A DNA stretch of 10,244 nt from Crocosphaera subtropica ATCC 51142 (GTDB lineage: Bacteria > Cyanobacteriota > Cyanobacteriia > Cyanobacteriales > Microcystaceae). The notes under the pieces were generated by a model that was not told the DNA's origin, searched no databases, and worked only from the letters and a program-made list of their open reading frames with translations. The stretch is taken from positions 1 through 10,244 of the forward strand of contig NC_010543.1 of the NCBI RefSeq assembly GCF_000017845.1. Reading direction: 5' to 3'. Below, piece after piece: positions 1-10,244 of this stretch; the first letter of the stretch is position 1; each line of letters begins with the position of its first letter. The translations under genes and the position numbers were made by a program.

Positions 1-21
1 TCAAGAATGGGGATGAGTGGG
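1..21. repeat. Right half of a ~60-bp direct repeat (copy A) split across the window ends; the intact second copy is at 2231-2291
   Basis: 1-21 tcaagaatggggatgagtggg matches 2271-2291 at 20/21 positions. The left half of copy A is 10206-10244. The segment overlaps the last six codons and the stop of the recombinase gene. Confidence 0.8.
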
Positions 22-657
22 AGATGGTGTGGAGTTATCTTGGAGGGGTTGAGGATCACGAAAGCTACTTTTCCCGATATATGACAAACTCGATAAAGAC
101 GCGATCGCGCCTTTGACTTGATCTGGTTTGACTTCCAGGTAGGCATGGAGTTGGGTGAGGTTGTGATGGCCGCTGATTTCGGCGATGACTCGGAAGGGGA
201 TGTTAGCGTCGCTCATTTGGGTCAGGGCGGTGCGTCGGAAGCTGTGGGTGCTGACTCCTTCTAGTCCGATGGAACGACAGGCTTTACGGAGGATCAGGGA
301 GGCACTGTCGGGGTGAAGGTGGCCTTTGTTCCAACGTCCAGGGAAGAGGTATTCGTTCTCTGAATTGGGTCTATATTGCCCTAGAAGGTGTCTTAAATCC
401 TCTGAGGTAGGAATTGTTCGGCTGGCTAGTTTACCCTTGCTGTTGCCCTTTCTGATGGTCATGTAGGGTCGGACGGTTCCGAGGCGATCATATGCGTCGG
501 CAGTGAGTTGAGTGACGGCTTCGTTAATTCGACAAGCGGTATAGAGGCAAAAGCCGAATAGAGTGCGATCTCGTTGGGTTTTAAGTCCTTGGTTGAAGAG
601 GAGGTAAATTTCTTCAGGGGTAAGGATTTTAGCTTTGCCGTGCCGTTCTCGTTTCAT
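1..657 (-). CDS. Tyrosine recombinase / phage-integrase family, catalytic domain only (218 aa)
   Basis: ATG at 657-655 and TGA at 3-1. Catalytic residues are readable: Arg in TACRINEA, H-x-x-R in THSFRRT, His in SGHHN, Tyr in HAYLEV. The first catalytic Arg is at residue ~43, so the usual ~100-aa N-terminal core-binding domain is absent. The gene lies 18 bp downstream of, and co-oriented with, the 676-1170 gene. Confidence 0.9.
   Translation of the reverse strand: MKRERHGKAKILTPEEIYLLFNQGLKTQRDRTLFGFCLYTACRINEAVTQLTADAYDRLGTVRPYMTIRKGNSKGKLASRTIPTSEDLRHLLGQYRPNSENEYLFPGRWNKGHLHPDSASLILRKACRSIGLEGVSTHSFRRTALTQMSDANIPFRVIAEISGHHNLTQLHAYLEVKPDQVKGAIASLSSLSYIGKSSFRDPQPLQDNSTPSPTHPHS
101..108. 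repeat. HIP1 octamer GCGATCGC (cyanobacterial highly iterated palindrome), single copy
   Basis: Exact GCGATCGC read at 101-108. It is used only as a taxonomic hint. Confidence 0.6.
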
Positions 658-675: not shown

Positions 676-1170
676 TTATTCTGGTTGATCGGATTTAGTG
701 GCGTTTTCAACGGCTTTTAAGTGTCTTTCTTTCAAGTCTCTGCGTCTTTGGTCATCTTCTTCTCGGCGGTAGTCGTTGAGGTTTTTAACTTTGCCTTTCC
801 AGCCGTAGTAGGGATTTAATCGAAAAGCATAGGAGCGTCCAACTTTGGGACCTCTGAGAATAATCCCTTTCTCTTCAAGAACAGAAATAGCCCTAGAAAC
901 ATTAGGCTTTTTCATCTCAAGCTTTTCTGAAATTTCATTTTGAGTGACTTGAATCCAGTTTTCAAAGTCGAGACGGGATAGCAAAAGTAAAAGAACCCTA
1001 TAAGTTTCACCTTTAAGGTCTTTATCAGTGGCTAGGAGTTCTAATGCTTCTTGACTATTCATGACCCAACCCGTTGAATAAGGATTCTGCTTAACTCCAC
1101 AATAAACTACTACTCCATCTAAAACTTCGCCTGTGTCTTGATCTACCGAGGCTATATTTCTACGTTTCAT
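676..1170 (-). CDS. Winged-helix DNA-binding protein, RepL-like (replication/maintenance) or recombination regulator
   Basis: I prefer the ATG at 1170-1168 (MKRRNIAS...), which has GGAGAG 5 nt upstream, over the TTG at 1185 used by the ORF track. The pattern GWVMNSQEALELL...YRVLLLLLSRLDFENWIQVTQNEISEKLEMKKPNVSRAISVLEEKGIILR...YAFRLNPYYGWKG fits a RepL/MarR-type winged helix. The C-terminus is basic and acidic. Confidence 0.7.
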   Translation of the reverse strand: MKRRNIASVDQDTGEVLDGVVVYCGVKQNPYSTGWVMNSQEALELLATDKDLKGETYRVLLLLLSRLDFENWIQVTQNEISEKLEMKKPNVSRAISVLEEKGIILRGPKVGRSYAFRLNPYYGWKGKVKNLNDYRREEDDQRRRDLKERHLKAVENATKSDQPE

Positions 1171-1187
1171 TAGGCTCTCCAACAAAT

Positions 1188-3595: not shown

Positions 3596-5986
3596 TTAAA
3601 GTGAAAATCCTCTACCTCGACTACGTTTCTGCTCTTGTTCTCTTTCCCATCTTAATTGAGCCATAAGAGCCTCATTCCAATCTTTATGATGGTTTGGCAC
3701 TACTCGACTAAGTTGAGCCGTAGAAGGAGCAATATTATTAAGCTCCTGAGCGATTCCCTGACCAGCTTCATCCTTATCAGTAGCGATAATAATTTGTCCC
3801 CCTTGGCTGTGGATCTTCTCAAAGGCTGTTTTAAGTAGGGTTTTCTGCTTTTCTGATAACGTGCCACCGGTGGCCATATAACGGGTGTTGGCATCAGGGA
3901 ATAGTTGATGATAGCTTAAGCAGTCTAGAGGGCTTTCACAGATGACTAATTTAGTATCAGTAGAGGCTGGTTTAGAGAACCATAGCCCTTTACTGCCACC
4001 TTTAGAGAAGCCTTTAAACTGTTGGTTACGAATTTCATAGCCACAGATACCCTCACGGTCATGGTAAGGAAAAATGACATTATTACGGCTGTCAGTGTAG
4101 ATTTTGTCTTGAAATTTAGGATTACTGGTGGTTTGTGGGTTGATGCCTCGTTGGGTAAGATAAGGATGGTTTGTAATGGGTTTAAAGCGTTCAAATTGAG
4201 TGAGTATGTTGTGTCTATCTGGGGTGCTTGGGGTTAGTTTAGGGGTAGATTTTTTAGGGGTGTAAGTAGAAGAATAGGTATCATTTAACCAGGGTCTAAG
4301 TTCTTTTCTAACTTCTCCTAAGTTGAGGTTTCTTTTATTCTGAATAAAGTCAATGATTGAGCCACTATCTCTATCATCTTTAACGGATGAGTAAAAATAG
4401 TGTCCATCGGCTTGATTAAGACCAACGAGAATCTTATCCCCTTGGTTATCTTTGAGGACAAGACAATTAACTGAACTTTTTTTCTTATCTATAGTATAAC
4501 CTTGTGTTTGAGCATAATCAGCTAGGTTAATTTGTTTGCATCGATGCAACTCTTCAGCTTGTTTATCTGCTATTTTTCTAAGACGTTCATGATGTCTTGA
4601 TAAGCGTTTTCGAGTTCGGTTATCCTGTTCGATAAGTTGTTGATGGTGCTGTTGAGTGAGTTGATTTGCTTGGTTAAGTTGGTCATTTGTTCGTTCTGTT
4701 GTTGCTTGTCCTTCTCGTATTGAATGGCAAAGTTCTTGAAGGTTTCTAGTAGCTCTTTTTCTAGTTGGTTCATCGTCTTCTTCTACAGCTTTAAGCAGGG
4801 CTTGCCTTTGCATTTCCAATTGGTCTTGTGATTGCTGTTGGGAGGTAATATTATGAATTTCCCTTGACTGGTTTGATAAAGTTCTATCCCCCAAGTCTTC
4901 TGCTTGAGTTGATTGAGGGTGATTCTGTTGGTTTGAATTTGTTGAAATTGTTTTGTTAAATATTGAGTCATCCCCCAACTGCCTATCAAGGAACCTGTTA
5001 AGAGGCTGATAAGAATTGTCCCTGGCAGTAGTGAAGTCCATTTCAGATGGTTTTTGATATTCTGTTGAGTAGCTTGAATATCGTTGGTGATGGTAGTCTC
5101 TACGTTTTGACACATTTTCTGACAGTTTTTCTTGAGCTTGTTTAATTCTTGATTGATTATCTGCTCTTGTTGCTGTCTGTCCTGTTGCCGTTTCCGTTGT
5201 AGGTTCTTGTCCAAGTCGCCAAGATGCACTATAAATTCCTCCTTTTAATCTAATGCGTTTATTTAGGTCATCATGGGTAACGGTGATGTAATCTTCCCCT
5301 TGCCTTGTAATGGTAAAGGCTGCGTCTTCTAGGGTGGTAATGATATCGTTACGGTTTTGGATCTGTCCTTCTTCTATATAAGCCGTTAAGTAATTGGTGA
5401 TGATCTTCCGAGCATCGTCCCGGCTGATGGGGGTTTGTCCAGCAAGTTCTAAGCGATGGTTTTGGGCATTAATTAAGGCTTGATGACCAGGATAATAGGT
5501 TCTAGAGCGTTCTGGGTCATCGGGGCTTGCCCATCCTTGAGAAGTGTTCCAAAGGTCACGCCAGGGTCTAAAGTAACTTTCCCATCCAGGGGGAGCAATA
5601 TTTAAGCTTTTACCAGTGGTTAATTCAACTCTAGGGGTAACAAAATGGAGTTCTACCCTATCATTGCCTGTGTGGGTATGCCTTACCCATAAAATGTCAT
5701 ACTGATCCTTATCTAATCCAGCAAAGGCGACGTTTTCAAAGGAGTTAATAAGGGCTTGTTGTTGTTCATTGTTAGGAGCATCTTCAGGAGCAAAGCTAAG
5801 AACGCCACTACGGTATTTATGTTTGAAGTTTAGGGAATCAATTAAGTTAATGGTTTGTTGAGGATCTCCTTTAATTAGTTCGGGTTGAGGGTCACGAATG
5901 ATACCTTTAGCATCAGTTTCTTTAAGGATATATTCAACTGGGGCTTTACCTTTTCCCGTCCCACGGTCAAAGAACTTAAGTAACAT
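3596..5986 (-). CDS. MOB relaxase (ColE1 MbeA-like, MobA/VirD2 relaxase domain) fused to a DUF3991 + Toprim primase-like C-terminal domain
   Basis: I prefer the ATG at 5986-5984 (MLLKFFDRGTGKGKAPVEYIL...), which has GAGGA 9 nt upstream and an 11-bp overlap with the mobC stop; the ORF-track start at 6040 runs through mobC. The N-terminus parallels MbeA as I recall it: KFxxRGxGxGxxPVxYxL with Tyr19, YRSGVLSF, and WVRHTHTGNDRVELHFVTP as the metal-binding motif. Next comes a Q/S/N-rich linker. The C-terminal part has a DUF3991-like segment (NLADYAQTQGYTID...GSIIDFIQ) and a Toprim domain (LVICESPLD ... IIIATDKDEAG at ~3761-3790). Confidence 0.9.
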   Translation of the reverse strand: MLLKFFDRGTGKGKAPVEYILKETDAKGIIRDPQPELIKGDPQQTINLIDSLNFKHKYRSGVLSFAPEDAPNNEQQQALINSFENVAFAGLDKDQYDILWVRHTHTGNDRVELHFVTPRVELTTGKSLNIAPPGWESYFRPWRDLWNTSQGWASPDDPERSRTYYPGHQALINAQNHRLELAGQTPISRDDARKIITNYLTAYIEEGQIQNRNDIITTLEDAAFTITRQGEDYITVTHDDLNKRIRLKGGIYSASWRLGQEPTTETATGQTATRADNQSRIKQAQEKLSENVSKRRDYHHQRYSSYSTEYQKPSEMDFTTARDNSYQPLNRFLDRQLGDDSIFNKTISTNSNQQNHPQSTQAEDLGDRTLSNQSREIHNITSQQQSQDQLEMQRQALLKAVEEDDEPTRKRATRNLQELCHSIREGQATTERTNDQLNQANQLTQQHHQQLIEQDNRTRKRLSRHHERLRKIADKQAEELHRCKQINLADYAQTQGYTIDKKKSSVNCLVLKDNQGDKILVGLNQADGHYFYSSVKDDRDSGSIIDFIQNKRNLNLGEVRKELRPWLNDTYSSTYTPKKSTPKLTPSTPDRHNILTQFERFKPITNHPYLTQRGINPQTTSNPKFQDKIYTDSRNNVIFPYHDREGICGYEIRNQQFKGFSKGGSKGLWFSKPASTDTKLVICESPLDCLSYHQLFPDANTRYMATGGTLSEKQKTLLKTAFEKIHSQGGQIIIATDKDEAGQGIAQELNNIAPSTAQLSRVVPNHHKDWNEALMAQLRWEREQEQKRSRGRGFSL
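4570..4773 (-). CDS. Candidate overprinted gene inside the relaxase gene: 67-aa coiled-coil protein, MbeD/MobD-like
   Basis: ATG at 4773-4771, 9 nt after the TAG of the 4783-5229 ORF and in the same frame as it. That frame differs from the relaxase frame. The heptad-like sequence is MNQLEKELLETFKNFAIQYEKDKQQQNEQMTNLTKQINSLNSTINNLSNRITELENAYQ. Confidence 0.45.
   Translation of the reverse strand: MNQLEKELLETFKNFAIQYEKDKQQQNEQMTNLTKQINSLNSTINNLSNRITELENAYQDIMNVLEK
4783..5229 (-). CDS. Candidate overprinted gene inside the relaxase gene: 148-aa membrane-anchored protein, MobB/MbeB-like accessory
   Basis: GTG start at 5229-5227, preceded by a perfect AAGGAGG (5244-5238) with an 8-nt spacer. The frame differs from the relaxase frame. 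The product has a charged, Q-rich coiled-coil N-terminus, one clear TM helix (WTSLLPGTILISLLTGSLIGSWGM) and a small C-terminal domain (WGIELYQTSQGKFIILPP...WKCKGKPCLKL). Confidence 0.55.
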   Translation of the reverse strand: MHLGDLDKNLQRKRQQDRQQQEQIINQELNKLKKNCQKMCQNVETTITNDIQATQQNIKNHLKWTSLLPGTILISLLTGSLIGSWGMTQYLTKQFQQIQTNRITLNQLKQKTWGIELYQTSQGKFIILPPNSNHKTNWKCKGKPCLKL

Positions 5987-6335
5987 CTTCGTTGTCCTCT
6001 GAATTAGGAGAAGGTTTATCAGATTTAACTGATAGTTCATGTAGGGTTTCTTGGATCAGTCTAAGAGCTTGAATAACCTCAATAGCTTCGGCGGTTTGTT
6101 TGTAGGTATTAGCCCATTTAGCGATTTGGTTTAGATTATTGCCAATGCGAGCGATCTGCCTAGTTTGTTCTTGAACTAATGAACTATTTGAAGCTGTCCA
6201 AGTTCGAGTTTTGGACATAGCTTGTCGGATAAGATTAGAGAGAGTAAGACCTGAGAGTACGGCCTTTTCTTGCCAAGCTAATTTTTCAGAAGGAGTTACC
6301 CGAATTGTTAGATTAATGTTACGTTTCTCAGTCAT
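5976..6335 (-). CDS. mobC: MobC/MbeC-family relaxosome accessory protein (ribbon-helix-helix N-terminus)
   Basis: I prefer the ATG at 6335-6333 (MTEKRNINLTIRVTPSEKLAWQEKAVLSGLTLSNLIRQA...). The longer track ORF to 6434 reads through G5/C5 repeat DNA. The RHH motif plus the IARIGNNLNQIAKWAN motif are typical of MobC. The stop overlaps the relaxase start, suggesting translational coupling. Confidence 0.85.
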   Translation of the reverse strand: MTEKRNINLTIRVTPSEKLAWQEKAVLSGLTLSNLIRQAMSKTRTWTASNSSLVQEQTRQIARIGNNLNQIAKWANTYKQTAEAIEVIQALRLIQETLHELSVKSDKPSPNSEDNEDVT

Positions 6336-6350
6336 AATAAAAAGAGAAGA

Positions 6351-6648
6351 ACATTCCTTTCCCATCTGCCCGAAGGGGGTTTTAGGGGGTTTCCCCCTAA
6401 ACAGCAGCCCCATGTTAGAATCTTTGTGATTCAACTATAACATAAGTACATGGGGTCTGCTGGCTTCCGCTTCACGGAAGGGACTACACTGAAAGGCTAT
6501 CTAGGGGTAATGGGGTTACAGTAATAAGATAATTATAAGGTATTTTCCTAATCGGAAAATAGTTATTTGTGAATGGGGGATAATCCCCCAAACCCCCTTA
6601 CTGGGGGACACCCCCAGACCCCCATTAGGGCAGATGGGAAAGGAATGT
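6351..6648. other. Candidate oriT / highly structured element bounded by perfect 21-bp inverted repeats
   Basis: acattcctttcccatctgccc (6351-6371) is the exact reverse complement of 6628-6648. Internal hairpins: tttaggggg-ttt-ccccctaaa (6381-6401), cttccg-cttca-cggaag (6464-6480), tattttcc-taatc-ggaaaata (6541-6561), ggggg-ataat-ccccc (6575-6589), ctggggg-aca-cccccag (6601-6617). The element lies immediately upstream of mobC-relaxase. Confidence 0.55.
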
Positions 6649-6772
6649 CTTTGTTTGATTAATTGGTTTAATATTGATAGTAGTTATTATGGAGGTGGGA
6701 TTATAGAAAGGCAAACATTGGGGGCTTTAGAGAGGGCTTATTTGTCACTTCAGGATATAGTGACTAATTTAT

Positions 6773-6931
6773 ATGGTGAAGCGACTGTTTGAAATAGGAA
6801 AATTAACGGTAGGACAAGCAGCAGAATTGGCGGGTTATTCTAAACCGACTTTTATCGAGTTACTTGGTAAATTAGGGGTTCCTGTGATTGATTATCCCCC
6901 CCAAGAATTAGAAGAGGAAAAAATTACTTAA
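6773..6931 (+). CDS. Small ORF (52 aa), UPF0175-family antitoxin-like; possibly N-terminally truncated
   Basis: This ORF is not in the supplied track, probably because it is short. The translation is MVKRLFEIGKLTVGQAAELAGYSKPTFIELLGKLGVPVIDYPPQELEEEKIT*. The G-x-AAELAG...F..LL...G(I/V)P....EL.EE pattern is typical of UPF0175 C-terminal halves. There is no obvious SD, an in-frame stop lies 9 nt upstream, and no PIN-type partner gene follows. Confidence 0.4.
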   Translation: MVKRLFEIGKLTVGQAAELAGYSKPTFIELLGKLGVPVIDYPPQELEEEKIT

Positions 6932-7087
6932 TTTATCTTTTTATAAAATAAGTATAACATTATAACGTGATTTTAGTTACAGTGTTATTAACTTTGTTAT
7001 ACACTTATAAATTAAATGGTTAATAATCACGATAATTAGAGTTGACTATAACTACAGTTTAGTTTTTATTTAAAACGGTGTTTTTAA

Positions 7088-7124
7088 ATGTGTCCAACAT
7101 TGTACACTATTATGTTAGACACAT
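7088..7124. repeat. 13-bp inverted repeat carrying the TGTC(C/T)AACA motif, downstream of the 7203-7490 gene
   Basis: atgtgtccaacat (7088-7100) and atgttagacacat (7112-7124) are reverse complements at 12/13, with an 11-nt spacer. They share their core with the sites at 8279-8331 and 8566-8577. Confidence 0.5.
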
Positions 7125-7202
7125 AATAGTAAAAATTGGCTATTGATGGGGAATAGTACCCCAGACAACCGTTATGTAGATGAAAAAAGGGTGGTGTTTT
7201 TT

Positions 7203-7490
7203 CTAAAAGGGGTCAATAGCATAGGTTAATAATTCCTTAGTGATTCGGTTAAAGTCTTTGATTGACTGAGCTTGATCTAATTGATTTAATAGAGCTTGTC
7301 TATCGTCTTCTTTGGGGAAGTAATGCCCTTTAAAACTTGTCCAGTGTTTGAGATACCCTCTAATTAAATCAGCATCTTCTTGGTTAAAGTTTGAGGAGTT
7401 ACTAAATAGCTTTTTGACGGCGTTAGGTAATTGACCGCTTTGTTCGTTTCTCCAATAAACTAAGGTATGGTCTGGATAGTTATAAAACAT
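7203..7490 (-). CDS. Hypothetical protein (95 aa), second gene of the RHH-GIY-YIG operon
   Basis: ATG at 7490, with AGAGG ~10 nt upstream and a 33-bp gap after the upstream gene. I recognise no motif in MFYNYPDHTLVYWRNEQSGQLPNAVKK...ELLTYAIDPF. Confidence 0.65.
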   Translation of the reverse strand: MFYNYPDHTLVYWRNEQSGQLPNAVKKLFSNSSNFNQEDADLIRGYLKHWTSFKGHYFPKEDDRQALLNQLDQAQSIKDFNRITKELLTYAIDPF

Positions 7491-7523
7491 TTTATTTTGC
7501 CTCTGATTGTGTTAGTTAATAGC

Positions 7524-8279
7524 TTAGGATTGAAAGAATTTAGACAAGCTGCTTCCTTCTTCAGTGGGTCGATATTTCCAACCGCTTAACTCTTCAAGGT
7601 ACTCAATGGGGTCAACTTCTAATAAGGAAGCTGCATCCTCTAAGTCCTTAACTGTATTGAAACCGAAATGCTTGGCTAAACCACTGCGAGTAACGCCTTC
7701 TCGTAAGTCTTCTGATGAGGGGTTCCATTCTTGTAACCCTCGTTTGGGTAAGTAGTTTTGAAGCTTCTTAACTACCTTCTCTGACCCAAGTTGAACCAAA
7801 ACTGATAAGGTATCATTGAACTGCTTTTTAAGGGTGGTCAATTCCTGTTCTAGTTTCTCAAATTGGTCAGAGGTTACTAATGCTTTGGTTTGAATTGTCT
7901 CAGTGGGTTCTGATTGGAACTCTTCTATAGTTTGGTTTAGGTTATCAACAGAGTCAAAAGTAAAGTAACCTATACGGGAATCCATAGAGGACTCTATAAA
8001 GTATTGATACTTGTGATGACTATTCCAACGAGTTCTTAAGTTATCTGCTTTGCCAATGTAGAGAAGTTGATGGTCTAAAGTATAAACAAAATAGATTCCA
8101 GGTTGAGAGGGTAATTTTACCCGTTCAGTGATATGAACCGAGGGTATAGAACTTAGTAACATCCCGATAATTACATCGGTCTTATTTTGTCGAGTCTGTT
8201 CTACTTGTTCATCAATACCCTTCATTAACTCAGAGGGACATCTGATAGTAAAGCTTGATGTGGATTGAGTTTTAGCCAT
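7524..8279 (-). CDS. Ribbon-helix-helix + GIY-YIG nuclease-domain protein with an unknown C-terminal domain
   Basis: I prefer the ATG at 8279-8277 (MAKTQSTSS...); the ORF track starts at the TTG at 8288. RHH-like N-terminus: FTIRCPSELMKGIDEQVEQTRQNKTDVIIGMLLSS. GIY-YIG motif: PGIYFVYTLDHQLLYIGKADNLRTRWNSHH. This is followed by a coiled-coil stretch and a ~90-aa C-terminal region. Confidence 0.8.
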   Translation of the reverse strand: MAKTQSTSSFTIRCPSELMKGIDEQVEQTRQNKTDVIIGMLLSSIPSVHITERVKLPSQPGIYFVYTLDHQLLYIGKADNLRTRWNSHHKYQYFIESSMDSRIGYFTFDSVDNLNQTIEEFQSEPTETIQTKALVTSDQFEKLEQELTTLKKQFNDTLSVLVQLGSEKVVKKLQNYLPKRGLQEWNPSSEDLREGVTRSGLAKHFGFNTVKDLEDAASLLEVDPIEYLEELSGWKYRPTEEGSSLSKFFQS

Positions 8280-8331
8280 GTTAGACAACGTTAATTATTT
8301 TAACTTGTATTGTAATCTAATTTGTCTAACA
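8279..8331. promoter_or_regulatory. Inverted TTGTCTAACA sites bracketing the promoter/start region of the RHH-GIY-YIG gene (candidate RHH operator)
   Basis: tgttagacaa (8279-8288, overlapping the start codon) is the exact reverse complement of ttgtctaaca (8322-8331), with a 33-bp spacer. The spacer contains TACAAT and TAAAAT -10-like hexamers on the minus strand. Confidence 0.5.
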
Positions 8332-8565
8332 AATGTAAGTGAAATAACCTAATTATACTTAACTGATACAAATAGTAAAATTAACTAACTACTTATAGTT
8401 ACGCTGCACATATAAACGTATAACACTGTTAAACAATATGTATATTATACTGTTTAATTTAGGAGTATTTAAAAATATAAGTAAGCACGAGTAAACTGTC
8501 TTTACTTAATAAAGTAAATTACATAAGACAGTGTTGTGTTGTTAAATATATAGTGTAGTTGATTA

Positions 8566-8577
8566 TGTCTAACAAAT
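8566..8577. repeat. Additional direct copy of the TGTCTAACAAAT 12-mer
   Basis: tgtctaacaaat at 8566-8577 is identical to 8323-8334. Confidence 0.5.
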
Positions 8578-8884
8578 ATAGTTATTTATTCAGAAAGCTG
8601 GTTAAACTTGAGAGTTAATATAAGAGTTTAGCTAATTCACTTAATAAATTAATTAGAGTATTATCTTAATAAGAATGCACTGTATAATAAATAAAATTAT
8701 AAATACTTTCAGCTTAGACTGTAACTGTATGTTAAGTAGTTAATTTGTTATTGTTATTATTTGTATTTTTCTGATAGAGTAAAAATAATGATCCTCTATG
8801 AAAAGCATTAATATCTTTTCTAAACTACTTAAATGTTTAGATTTTAGGTTCATAAATTAAAATTTGATATTAAATCTTCACAAA

Positions 8885-9370
8885 ATGTTAAATCGTTTAA
8901 ATTGGCCTGAAATTGTTGGTGGAATTATTGGAAGTATTTTAACAGTTTTTGGTTTATATCTATTTGATAAAATTGGTTTAATTAGTTCAGAAATTGTTAT
9001 TCCATCAAAGGCAATAATTCCTTTTAATTCAAATGAATGTCCTAGTGGTTGGTCAGATTATAGTCAAAGTGCTGGTCGTTTTATTATCGGTGTTGGTCAA
9101 GGAAGTAATCTTACAGAGAGAAGATTGGGAGATTTAGGTGGAACAGAAAAACATATGTTAACTGTTGATGAGATACCACAACATTATCATAACTACGAAG
9201 ATTATCATTATTATGATCAAGAGATAGGTGATCCAAATTATCAAACTCCTCAGGGTGATGAAACTGGTATATTAAAATATAGAGAAGGACAAACTACCGA
9301 AATTGGCGGGGGAAAACCTCATGAGAATATACCACCTTTTGTTGCCTTAAAATATTGTGAAAAAGAATAA
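8885..9370 (+). CDS. Membrane-anchored phage-tail-collar-domain (MdpB/COG4675-like) protein
   Basis: I prefer the ATG at 8885; the ORF track starts at the TTG at 8864. N-terminal TM helix: WPEIVGGIIGSILTVFGLYLF. Tail-collar-like core: AIIPFNSNECPSGW...GRFIIGVGQGSNLTERRLGDLGGTEKHMLTVDEIPQHYH...GGGKPHENIPPFVALKYC. Confidence 0.7.
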   Translation: MLNRLNWPEIVGGIIGSILTVFGLYLFDKIGLISSEIVIPSKAIIPFNSNECPSGWSDYSQSAGRFIIGVGQGSNLTERRLGDLGGTEKHMLTVDEIPQHYHNYEDYHYYDQEIGDPNYQTPQGDETGILKYREGQTTEIGGGKPHENIPPFVALKYCEKE

Positions 9371-9425: not shown

Positions 9426-9944
9426 TTAGGTTTCTGGCTCTGTTTCTTTACCTTTAAGCATTACCATTAGACGGCGTTTAACATCGCCGTTGTCTTCTTT
9501 GCGGGCTAAAGTCTTAGTAGTAAAAGCTGCATATTTCTTGCTAGTATTCCAGCTTTTCCAAACTTCATCTGGATCTAAACAGTAAGCATAAACTGTTCCT
9601 GCTCCTAACTTAATTCGTAAGACAATATTGTTTTCATCAAGCCATTTGGTTCCTCTTTGAACTGAGCGAATACTAATATCTAATTCATCAGCTAGTAGTT
9701 GTTGAGAAGCAACAACAGCACCCGTACCAGGTTCAATGTGTTTGGCTAAAAACATATAGATTCTGGCAGCTAATGGATATTCTCCAAGAATACCTATAAC
9801 TCTATCAAAGCCTTTTGGATACATTTGAACAAAGTTTTTGTTTTTTTTTCTATCTTTATTTTTCTGTTCTTCGTTTAACCGTTCATCGACTAATTGTATG
9901 AAACGTTGTAAACGATCTTCTGTTGTTGCAGCGGTCTTATCCAT
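9426..9944 (-). CDS. Second RepL-like winged-helix protein (candidate plasmid replication/maintenance protein)
   Basis: ATG at 9944-9942. The sequence NFVQMYPKGFDRVIGILGEYPLAARIYMFLAKHIEPGTGAVVASQQLLADELDISIRSVQRGTKWLDENNIVLRIKLGAGTVYAYCLDPDEVWK has the same architecture as the 676-1170 product. Confidence 0.7.
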   Translation of the reverse strand: MDKTAATTEDRLQRFIQLVDERLNEEQKNKDRKKNKNFVQMYPKGFDRVIGILGEYPLAARIYMFLAKHIEPGTGAVVASQQLLADELDISIRSVQRGTKWLDENNIVLRIKLGAGTVYAYCLDPDEVWKSWNTSKKYAAFTTKTLARKEDNGDVKRRLMVMLKGKETEPET

Positions 9945-10036: not shown

Positions 10037-10070
10037 CTAAGTATTTTTACTTACACTAAGTATTTTTACT
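10037..10070. repeat. Two direct 15-bp repeats CTAAGTATTTTTACT (iteron-like)
   Basis: 10037-10051 and 10056-10070 are identical, with a 19-bp period. They lie upstream of the putative promoter of the second RepL-like gene. Confidence 0.6.
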
Positions 10071-10111: not shown

Positions 10112-10205
10112 AGGGGGTCAAGGGCTGAAACCTGCATGAAATAAGGATCTTTTATTTTTTCCTTCTTATCTCAGTTAATGAAGGGGTCTGGGGAACACTT
10201 TTCCC

Positions 10206-10244
10206 AGAAATAAAACTGCGACGATAGGAGCAACGATCTTCCTT
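10206..10244. repeat. Left half of direct repeat copy A (continues at 1-21 if the molecule is circular)
   Basis: agaaataa + aac + tgcgacgataggagcaacgatctt + cctt. The 24-mer at 10217-10240 is identical to 2239-2262. Confidence 0.85.

Follow-up and report, generated by a model that had tools for sequence, protein, structure and literature searches.

A plasmid-borne protein family of cyanobacteria that joins a ribbon-helix-helix module to a GIY-YIG nuclease core, and its putative cognate sites

A 10,244-bp stretch of DNA from Crocosphaera subtropica ATCC 51142 (contig NC_010543.1, analyzed at its full length and hereafter called the window) carries a gene for a 251-amino-acid (aa) protein in which a ribbon-helix-helix (RHH) DNA-binding module is joined to a GIY-YIG nuclease core. 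We consider it moderately probable that this protein is a self-regulating, sequence-targeted GIY-YIG endonuclease, and that its gene is a free-standing backbone gene, not half of a two-protein module. Comparative analysis places this backbone gene in unicellular and baeocystous cyanobacteria, on plasmids that are small and mobilizable. A preliminary description of this DNA, made from the letters alone, had reported the gene, a 95-aa neighbor and a repeated motif around them, and its coordinates for open reading frames (ORFs) and motif copies all agree with the sequence. It had also held that the arrangement matches no described system, a view that stands: literature searches on the family, on RHH/CopG modules fused to GIY-YIG or on the family in cyanobacterial plasmids returned nothing relevant. 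What is known already is a nuclease tethered to a DNA-binding module that represses its own gene; what appears to be new is the RHH plus GIY-YIG family. Small cyanobacterial plasmids are poorly understood and wanted as vector backbones, and a conserved backbone gene has now been identified. The gene is widespread on plasmids relevant to cyanobacterial genetics; the two-gene system does not hold.

The protein combines an RHH module, a GIY-YIG core and an additional C-terminal region

7524..8279, minus strand: ORF (ATG at 8279) for the 251-aa protein with RHH, GIY-YIG, coiled-coil and C-terminal-domain regions

The approximate limits of the regions in this protein are 8-45 for the RHH module, 46-58 for a conserved linker, 59-126 for the GIY-YIG core, 137-175 for a long helix and 185-251 for the C-terminal domain. 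In Pfam, the GIY-YIG match (PF01541, E=1.1e-5, 26.1 bits) exceeds the cut-off of 22.6, and the RHH_1 match (E=1.3e-3, 19.0 bits) falls just under the cut-off of 20.5; several relatives have a precomputed PF01402 match, and RHH_1 is found at E=3.3e-7 in relative P0132. The NCBIfam matches are to the N-terminal domains of UvrC and Cho. An AlphaFold model of the protein, with a predicted local distance difference test (pLDDT) score of 73, has the two RHH helices at 16-29 and 33-43 (the N-terminal strand being unformed in this monomer model), a beta-beta-alpha-alpha-beta-alpha core at 61-123, a single long helix at 137-175 and a compact domain at 185-251. When the model was compared with known structures using Foldseek, the core matched the N-terminal domain of UvrC (1yd6, 1ycz and others) with a probability of 1.00, a target TM-score of 0.50-0.55 and E=3e-3 to 8e-3, and also matched Eco29kI and the GIY-YIG domain of plant GRXS16, while the N-terminus gave a weak match to NikR. 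The RHH and GIY-YIG assignments are thus backed by the predicted structure and its structural matches and, together with the family profile LPxxPGiYfvY..llYvGKAdnLrtRwnsHh, which aligns with the active-site segment of UvrC, they bear out the original claim of an RHH module joined to a GIY-YIG core plus a further uncharacterized region.

The catalytic residues are not degenerate. The two strand motifs are present as G61-I62-Y63 and Y74-I75-G76, within the spacing of 10-11 residues typical of the superfamily. An alignment of 28 family members, which share 58-85% identity with the window protein, shows no variation at Y63, G76, R84 and H88 and at least 90% conservation of Y74, K77 and E120. R84 and H88 align with the Arg and Tyr of UvrC ...KSLKERVRSYF, while E120, which lies in helix 111-123 after strand 102-107, is the candidate metal-binding Glu, as assigned by topology.

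The C-terminal domain carries the signature PPRGxQxW ... EGIxRxxL ... YLEELSGW ... RFFPP. This region (residues 168-251, window 7527-7778) models at a pLDDT of 83, and no significant match was found among structures in the Protein Data Bank (best E 0.8, the weak ones being mostly helix-turn-helix or winged-helix). It occurs elsewhere as a stand-alone domain, or once or twice in tandem behind SUKH/SMI1-KNR4 domains. Conversely, a profile search of 1.8 billion representatives found the RHH plus GIY-YIG unit joined to other C-terminal regions as well. Libraries of defense-system and phage proteins returned only generic GIY-YIG matches for the 251-aa protein.

The family is conserved on small mobilizable plasmids

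The protein has more than 168 homologs, nearly all of them 251-252 aa long and mostly on short contigs, and this near-invariant length holds down to ~52% identity. Their database label, if any, is "GIY-YIG nuclease family protein." The nearest relatives are from Crocosphaera and a unicellular cyanobacterium. The following complete plasmids encode full-length members, with 51-61% identity across 99% of the protein.

Chondrocystis NIES-4102, 22 kb
Gloeothece citriformis PCC 7424, 18 and 15 kb

A fourth copy spans the record start of an 11.5-kb Chondrocystis plasmid, and all four plasmids (22, 18, 15 and 11.5 kb) are typed as mobilizable. Scanning genomes yielded 27 loci, with two to four often present in one genome on separate contigs, and scanning metagenomes yielded 80 further loci; the genera with the gene on plasmids are Crocosphaera, Gloeothece, Chondrocystis, Pleurocapsa, Hyella, Chroococcus and Aphanothece. 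Larger contigs place the gene among transposases and integrases. Two of the loci, L013 and L014, lie ~10.6 kb apart on one 21,221-bp contig (CAYTUO010000024.1) with the same upstream sequence and gene order; this contig is probably a head-to-tail assembly of one ~10.6-kb plasmid, and the pair was counted once.

Substitution patterns indicate that the family is under strong purifying selection. When the window protein was compared with three close relatives, the ratio of nonsynonymous (dN) to synonymous substitution rates (dN/dS) was 0.03-0.13 overall and low in each domain, and the GIY-YIG core had the lowest dN of all domains in the comparison with locus L007.

No gene is a constant neighbor of the nuclease gene among 31 clustered loci. 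The neighbors vary and include ParA, RepL-like proteins (adjoining the nuclease gene in ~8 loci), MobQ or MobC-relaxase modules and integrases. A parA gene lies directly downstream in five of the 31 loci and within two genes in eight, and also lies downstream on the complete plasmid AP018287.1. We considered a ParB-like role for the nuclease on account of this frequent position of parA, and rejected it: the parA gene that follows has its own small downstream partner ORF, and the window plasmid has no parA.

TGT-N3-ACA sites flank the operon in the window

The sites around the nuclease gene and the 95-aa gene downstream of it (together, the operon) are listed below together with a putative promoter and the conserved upstream block; negative numbers are positions relative to the start codon of the nuclease gene.

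8279..8287, no strand: proximal operator-like site at -8, reading TGTCTAACATG on the gene strand and overlapping the ATG start codon
8323..8331, no strand: operator-like site at -52, inverted relative to the -8 site and 44 bp from it, center to center
8427..8435, no strand: site at -156, reading TGTTTAACA on the gene strand, followed by GTGTTAT
8566..8574, no strand: distal site at -295, within a 12-mer TGTCTAACAAAT in common with 8323-8334
7088..7124, no strand: two sites downstream of the operon, 22 bp apart, at 7091-7099 (TGTCCAACA) and 7113-7121 (TGTTAGACA)
6995..7003, no strand: third site downstream of the operon, TGTTATACA
8352..8379, minus strand: best sigma-70-like promoter match, TTTACT-16-TATAAT (consensus match only)
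8288..8735, minus strand: non-coding block of ~450 bp that travels with the gene, alignable with the closest relatives to ~-456

The motif copies noted originally comprise an inverted pair (8279-8287, TGTTAGACA, and 8323-8331, TGTCTAACA), a direct 12-mer (TGTCTAACAAAT, at 8323-8334 and 8566-8577) and a 12/13 inverted pair (7088-7100 and 7112-7124). Of the five occurrences claimed, four are exact and the fifth (7091-7099) has one mismatch. The 9-bp palindrome TGT-N3-ACA is a better description of the motif. It occurs seven times in the window, starting at 6995, 7091, 7113, 8279, 8323, 8427 and 8566, and all seven copies lie within 6995-8574, in the two intergenic regions flanking the operon, with none in the remaining 8.6 kb. 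The flanking sites in the preliminary description are therefore real, and two more, at 8427-8435 and 6995-7003, had been missed. The exact 9-mer TGTCTAACA is present in four copies when 0.07 +/- 0.25 are expected, a number reached in none of 200 dinucleotide shuffles, while its count with one mismatch allowed (7, with 3.0 expected) is by itself not significant.

The spacings of these sites are close to whole helical turns: 44 bp between -8 and -52, 104 bp between -52 and -156, and 22 bp for the downstream pair. The -156 site is part of a composite element that recurs as TGT(C/A)TAACAGTGTTAT at ~-167 in a subfamily that is 59% identical. Downstream of the operon, the site at 7113-7121 is the center of a perfect palindrome (7106-7130), and the pair at 7088-7124 is only partly kept in L007, a 98%-identical relative, which has a site at the position equivalent to 6995-7003 (+1276). 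If the promoter at 8352-8379 is used, the -52 and -8 sites would lie in the 5' leader; its TATAAT is kept in L007 and reads TCTAAT in L008 and L009. The upstream region includes ~570 bp of AT-rich DNA with a GC fraction of 0.22-0.25. Beyond ~-456, the flanks of the closest relatives are unrelated, so the gene and its array travel together from one backbone to another.

Other structures in these regions were considered as well. The conserved upstream block also contains an inverted repeat, ACTGTCTT / AAGACAGT, at 8485-8492 / 8516-8523; a C and a G of this repeat jointly become T and A in L007 and L008, which amounts to one compensatory change, and the fold of the repeat as single-stranded DNA is modest (z=-1.7). 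Several short inverted matches had raised the idea of large degenerate inverted repeats around the operon, which was dropped because 6932-7202 aligned to the reverse complement of 8289-8863 with a score of 26, compared with 24.9 +/- 3.0 for shuffled sequences. A hairpin in the leader RNA was likewise rejected as the reason for the motif: the -52/-8 leader does fold in the window (-11.4 kcal/mol, z=-2.3), but relatives have direct copies or differing central triplets, so that pairing is not conserved. The downstream pair (7088-7124) forms a stable stem but is not a canonical terminator, and a role as a simple terminator was rejected; besides being a pair of sites, it may function as a hairpin.

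The sites recur at fixed positions across the family

The motif is conserved in related plasmids, in the more general form TGT-N3-ACA and at fixed upstream positions. This is apparent from the upstream regions of 78 loci (29 non-redundant genome loci and 49 independent metagenome loci) anchored on the start codon. The recurrent layout consists of one site at -8, whose last base abuts the ATG, and another at -51 or -52, with further sites at ~-111, -156 to -170, -286 to -301 and ~-430. The -8 site is found in 12 of the 29 genome loci and 9 of the 49 metagenome loci, a site at -50 to -52 in 15 and ~24, respectively, and sites between -286 and -301 in many loci. These positions hold over subfamilies that are 59-98% identical, with constant arms and a variable central triplet (CTA/TAG, AAA, AAG, ATG or ATA). 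Subfamilies are offset from one another by 1 bp, which blurred a column-wise conservation profile aligned at the ATG, and this profile added nothing.

In the 600 bp upstream of the 29 genome loci, 83 sites are present compared with 9.1 +/- 2.7 in dinucleotide shuffles, and the 49 metagenome loci have 153 upstream sites with 13.3 +/- 3.6 expected. The density is 5-5.7 sites per kb upstream of the gene, 0.19-0.23 in the rest of the loci and 0.39 in other intergenic DNA. Moreover, the presence of the motif tracks the type of RHH beta-strand: the palindrome accompanies strands of the type S(I/F)T(I/V)RCP, while subfamilies with AVTFRCP or TFSLRLP have no palindrome and carry other upstream repeats. 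TGT-N3-ACA is therefore, on this covariation, very probably the cognate site of the RHH module. Because the upstream sites have fixed positions and are absent when the RHH strand differs, the proposed autoregulation through cognate operators is well supported by these comparisons. The claim that the motif brackets its own genes holds in the clade of the window and fails in other subfamilies, which have no downstream sites.

One locus has sites far from its nuclease gene. In L015 (2005-2803 and 3419), six TGT-N3-ACA sites form a second cluster upstream of a 97-aa ORF and 2.6-3.4 kb away from the nuclease gene of that plasmid; three of them are exact TGTCTAACA/TGTTAGACA copies. One further site lies near a HigB/HigA-like pair. 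This cluster might be a regulon, or possibly reflects cross-talk with the nuclease of L008, a co-resident plasmid from the same metagenome-assembled genome.

The 95-aa gene is a passenger

7203..7490, minus strand: ORF for the 95-aa protein, 33 bp downstream of the nuclease gene

The ORF coordinates agree with the 33-bp gap and the shared strand reported originally, and the 95-aa gene is probably co-transcribed with the nuclease gene. The small protein was also correctly described as having no recognizable domain (none in Pfam, NCBIfam, PADLOC or PHROGs), and it does show real conservation at the protein level. Its distribution is very different from that of the nuclease, with seven homolog clusters versus more than 168 homologs. 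Within the clade in which the two genes are found together, where the nucleases are at least 94% identical, the 95-aa gene is beside the nuclease gene in the window, L007 (= L004) and L091, and L041 and L045 have truncated copies. L008, L009, L043, L044 and L046, with nucleases that are 96-98% identical, lack the 95-aa gene, as do all loci that are more distant. Conversely, L005, L006, L039, L040 and L042 carry the 95-aa gene without the nuclease.

The notion of a pair that co-occurs among homologs thus holds for the window, L007 and L091 and fails for most nuclease loci. This patchy co-occurrence, together with the other contexts of the small gene, argues that it is a passenger and not the partner of the nuclease, and the role of dedicated partner or immunity factor suggested in the preliminary description is not upheld. 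Where it stands elsewhere, the 95-aa gene is found 6 bp after a gene for a ~100-aa HNH protein (CxxC...HH...N...CxxCH) in L005 (5687-6288) and L006 (2831-3421), and 43 bp after a C5-cytosine methylase fusion gene in L039 (1-2028); it seems to travel behind genes for DNA-acting enzymes.

A proposed mode of action

We propose that the N-terminal RHH module dimerizes and reads the 9-bp TGT-N3-ACA, as suggested by the motif statistics and the match with the RHH beta-strand. The two promoter-proximal sites, 43-44 bp apart (about four helical turns) and with one of them over the start codon, have the anatomy expected for negative autoregulation, which would keep the dose of a potentially harmful nuclease low. 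These proximal sites would also control the passenger 95-aa gene here, and perhaps the downstream parA in other plasmids. Bound dimers lying on the same face of the DNA, as spacings of 22, 44 and 104 bp would allow, might be bridged by the long coiled-coil helix, and the sites extending to ~-430, with the three downstream in the clade of the window, could give rise to a nucleoprotein array on the plasmid. The UvrC/Cho-type core would be catalytically competent, considering that Tyr63, Tyr74, Lys77, Arg84, His88 and Glu120 are retained under purifying selection, and the short, highly conserved linker would hold it near the RHH-bound DNA. The protein might then nick or cut near a subset of its sites and, like I-TevI, do no more than repress at its own operators.

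The purpose of such an enzyme is most probably a service to the plasmid. It could process plasmid DNA at the site array or discriminate against co-resident or incoming sibling plasmids, while post-segregational killing is less likely. More tentatively, and in a form that we think improbable as it stands, the protein and its phased array could make up a hitherto unrecognized plasmid-maintenance or -competition module acting in cis or in trans, in which RHH dimers bridged by the coiled coil would form a nucleoprotein complex on the plasmid and the tethered GIY-YIG domain would make a regulated nick or cut. At home, this cleavage could set off recombination or a restart of replication; elsewhere, it could destroy sibling plasmids whose array geometry differs; the latter would be a nuclease-based incompatibility among co-resident cyanobacterial plasmids. 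Specificity in such a module would come from the RHH strand together with the variable central triplet.

Several findings weigh against a self-regulating, sequence-targeted endonuclease. First, as for the catalytic core, the PF01541 match covers only the N-terminal half of the GIY-YIG model, and the segment 121-135 has no conserved Asn corresponding to N88 of UvrC or N90 of I-TevI; a conserved E124-P125-x-x-T128 occupies the region of this canonical residue, where the pLDDT of the model is below 50. Second, the link between motif and protein is drawn from co-occurrence and covariation, and the common ancestry of the upstream regions accounts for some of the motif enrichment, the loci being not fully independent; since these regions are homologous, the argument rests on the survival of sites amid sequence that is otherwise unalignable between subfamilies. 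Third, the promoter is placed by consensus match only, and a site array of ~430 bp is larger than simple autoregulation needs. Fourth, sites on the nuclease's own replicon demand a way to avoid self-destruction, and the analysis revealed none. Finally, the copies in L023 (3239-3986) and L030 (6001-6748) are broken by stop codons or frameshifts, so the nuclease gene can be dispensable.

The disrupted L023 copy shares a 32-kb contig with an intact copy, L017. This suggests a plasmid co-integrate in which one copy is redundant; an assembly error is also possible.

Whatever the outcome, the RHH module and TGT-N3-ACA constitute a precise and testable protein-DNA pair, with fixed positions and a proximal spacing of 43-44 bp. 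If the nuclease is active and directed to these sites, it would be the second natural tethered GIY-YIG protein to combine repression and cleavage after I-TevI, with a dimeric RHH module, and might have a bearing on plasmid coexistence and incompatibility in polyploid cyanobacteria; it might also offer a compact scaffold for targeting plus nicking. If it is only a repressor, it would be an ordinary plasmid regulator with an odd domain.

Comparison with known systems

The closest working analog appears to be I-TevI, a tethered GIY-YIG nuclease and autorepressor whose operator overlaps its own promoter and is bound without being cut, because this operator has no cleavage motif at the right distance (PMC2988022). 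Like I-TevI, I-TevII/III and the Seg-type enzymes of phage T4, the 251-aa protein links a GIY-YIG core to a separate sequence-specific DNA-binding module. However, the domain order is reversed, with the DNA-binding module at the N-terminus, and this module is a predicted RHH, a type that is obligately dimeric, instead of the zinc finger, minor-groove helix and helix-turn-helix of I-TevI. The linker is short, not long as in the I-TevI type, and a coiled coil and a C-terminal domain are added. Moreover, the gene is carried by a plasmid, not by a phage intron, and has at least six phased sites with no known homing site, in contrast to the single operator of I-TevI. Sequence similarity to I-TevI (1mk0, E=0.37) is confined to generic GIY-YIG motifs. 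Because of the differences in domain order and in the type of DNA-binding module, the protein is not a member of the I-TevI family.

The closest match to the core, in both sequence and fold, is the N-terminal GIY-YIG (URI) domain of UvrC/Cho, in which LPxxPG-Y...YVGKA-NL..R...(Y/H) aligns residue by residue with the 251-aa protein. UvrC has no sequence-specific module and is brought to damaged DNA by UvrB, whereas targeting here would fall to the RHH module, and no repair partners are encoded near the nuclease gene.

As for the RHH module, the likeness is to plasmid regulators such as CopG (pMV158), omega (pSM19035) and ParG (TP228), which have repeated short sites upstream of their own operon. 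Arrays bound by RHH repressors can double as operator and as cis-acting maintenance site. These regulators are 45-80 aa long, have no enzymatic domain and bind contiguous repeats with a periodicity of 7-13 bp, in contrast to the nuclease, coiled coil and extra domain of the 251-aa protein and its sites 43-130 bp apart. Type Ib partition, which pairs an RHH protein with ParA, differs in that the window has no ParA.

Eco29kI, Cfr42I and Hpy188I are likewise sequence-specific GIY-YIG nucleases on mobile DNA, and C-protein control of restriction systems follows a similar logic, with a dangerous nuclease held in check by a small DNA-binding regulator. Unlike GIY-YIG restriction systems, the window encodes no methyltransferase and the sites are on the element's own DNA; recognition would be by the fused RHH module and not, as in those enzymes, by the catalytic domain.

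Alternative explanations

Could the gene be a homing-type selfish cassette? Such a cassette would cut cassette-free plasmids at an operator-like site, be copied in by repair together with its ~450-bp block, and repress itself in the manner of I-TevI. The tethered architecture and the operators over the promoter and start codon are indeed I-TevI-like, the block and gene (94-98% protein identity) are found on unrelated backbones in the window, L007, L008 and L009, several copies can be present per genome on different plasmids, and the copies in L023 and L030 are disrupted. However, mosaic recombination explains the shared block equally well, considering that a UPF0175/DUF3368 flank is also shared. 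Furthermore, selection is strongly and uniformly purifying (see above), and a near-constant length in so many homologs down to ~52% identity is unlike the gain and decay of homing endonuclease genes. There is no recurrent host gene or insertion point, the gene being surrounded by rep, par and mob genes whose order changes, and no empty or defined target site was found; an array of at least six phased sites would also be superfluous. We regard homing as possible, not favored, and on balance unlikely.

Also unlikely, and to a similar degree, is that the protein is purely a regulator, that is, a CopG/omega/ParG-like repressor or architectural protein in which an inert GIY-YIG-like domain serves for oligomerization or DNA contact. 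Its operator arrays do look like the ones bound by RHH regulators and centromere-binding proteins, parA follows the gene in some loci (the five and eight of 31 and AP018287.1 mentioned above), additional sites are clustered in L015 at a distance of more than 2.6 kb from the gene, the canonical Asn has no evident counterpart, and there is no partner to neutralize a toxic nuclease. Nevertheless, an inert domain would leave unexplained the retention of the whole catalytic set (GIY Tyr, YIG Tyr, Lys, Arg, His and helix Glu, all invariant or nearly so), its alignment with the UvrC active site and a core with the lowest dN of all domains relative to L007, while parA genes are followed by a small ORF of their own and are missing from the window.

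Next comes the possibility that the AT-rich array is a replication origin at which a GIY-YIG nick starts replication, again possible and not favored, and in our view very unlikely. The ~570-bp AT-rich region, with its phased putative binding sites and conserved inverted repeat, would suit an origin, as would the RepL-like proteins without a recognizable nuclease motif that are adjacent in ~8 loci and the presence of a gene copy on each plasmid. But the RepL-like genes have their own upstream tandem repeats (1188-1226 and 10037-10070), which are better candidates for the origin or iterons, other family members are on plasmids with CyRepA1-type or other replication genes, no DnaA boxes beyond chance are present in the window, and disrupted copies are on apparently maintained replicons. 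In addition, GIY-YIG enzymes hydrolyze DNA without a covalent intermediate and therefore cannot finish a rolling-circle round.

The least likely rival, to which we give hardly any credence, is an addiction or exclusion pair of nuclease toxin and co-transcribed 95-aa inhibitor or immunity factor, for although the two genes share a strand and are separated by 33 bp, RHH modules are characteristic of antitoxins and repressors, and the small HNH gene before the 95-aa gene in L005 and L006 hints at a link with DNA-acting enzymes, the small gene is present in only part of the closest clade, is missing beside five nucleases that are 96-98% identical, is truncated beside an intact nuclease gene in L041 and L045, has far fewer homolog clusters than the nuclease has homologs, and also follows a C5-methylase fusion gene.

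The window is probably a complete plasmid

The window has the look of an entire small cyanobacterial plasmid of the mobilizable kind. When its end (10205-10244) is joined to its start (1-21), a ~60-bp element is re-formed, of which a second direct copy, ~90% identical, lies at 2230-2291; the window is therefore probably circular and, on this sequence evidence, probably the whole plasmid of 10,244 bp. The two ~60-bp copies bracket a segment that encodes the tyrosine recombinase, one of the RepL-like proteins and a secreted protein of 215 aa, and may be recombinase target sites or a co-integrate scar. A search of PLSDB for near-identical plasmids returned a match to only a relaxase fragment of a Rippkaea plasmid. 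Besides the nuclease operon, the following features were identified from ORFs and domain searches.

1-657, minus strand: tyrosine recombinase
676-1185, minus strand: RepL-like winged-helix protein
9426-9944, minus strand: second RepL-like winged-helix protein
3596-6040, minus strand: relaxase-primase
5976-6434, minus strand: NikA/MobC protein
6773-6931, plus strand: truncated UPF0175 antitoxin-like protein, 52 aa
8864-9370, plus strand: tail-collar-like ORF of 168 aa, divergent from the nuclease gene

Two predicted secreted proteins are encoded among the ORFs of the window, in which the ORF list and Pfam revealed no ParA gene and Pfam and NCBIfam no methyltransferase domain in any ORF. No known RNA families or tRNAs are present in 6700-9000 or in the window as a whole.

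Each RepL-like gene has a pair of tandem repeats immediately upstream (1188-1226 and 10037-10070), with two copies of AGTTATCATATATGATAA at a spacing of 21 bp and two copies of CTAAGTATTTTTACT at a spacing of 19 bp. These repeats are candidate iterons or operators and mark a likelier location for the origin than the array before the nuclease gene.

Where the window has a truncated UPF0175 ORF, without the DUF3368 gene beside it, L007 and L009 hold a full UPF0175 plus DUF3368 (PIN-like) pair. The product of the ORF at 8864-9370 matches C-terminal domains of phage tail-fiber, collar and baseplate Gp10 proteins (E=6.5e-5 in Pfam and E=5.7e-10 in PHROGs), and such a phage tail-type domain is unexpected on a small plasmid.

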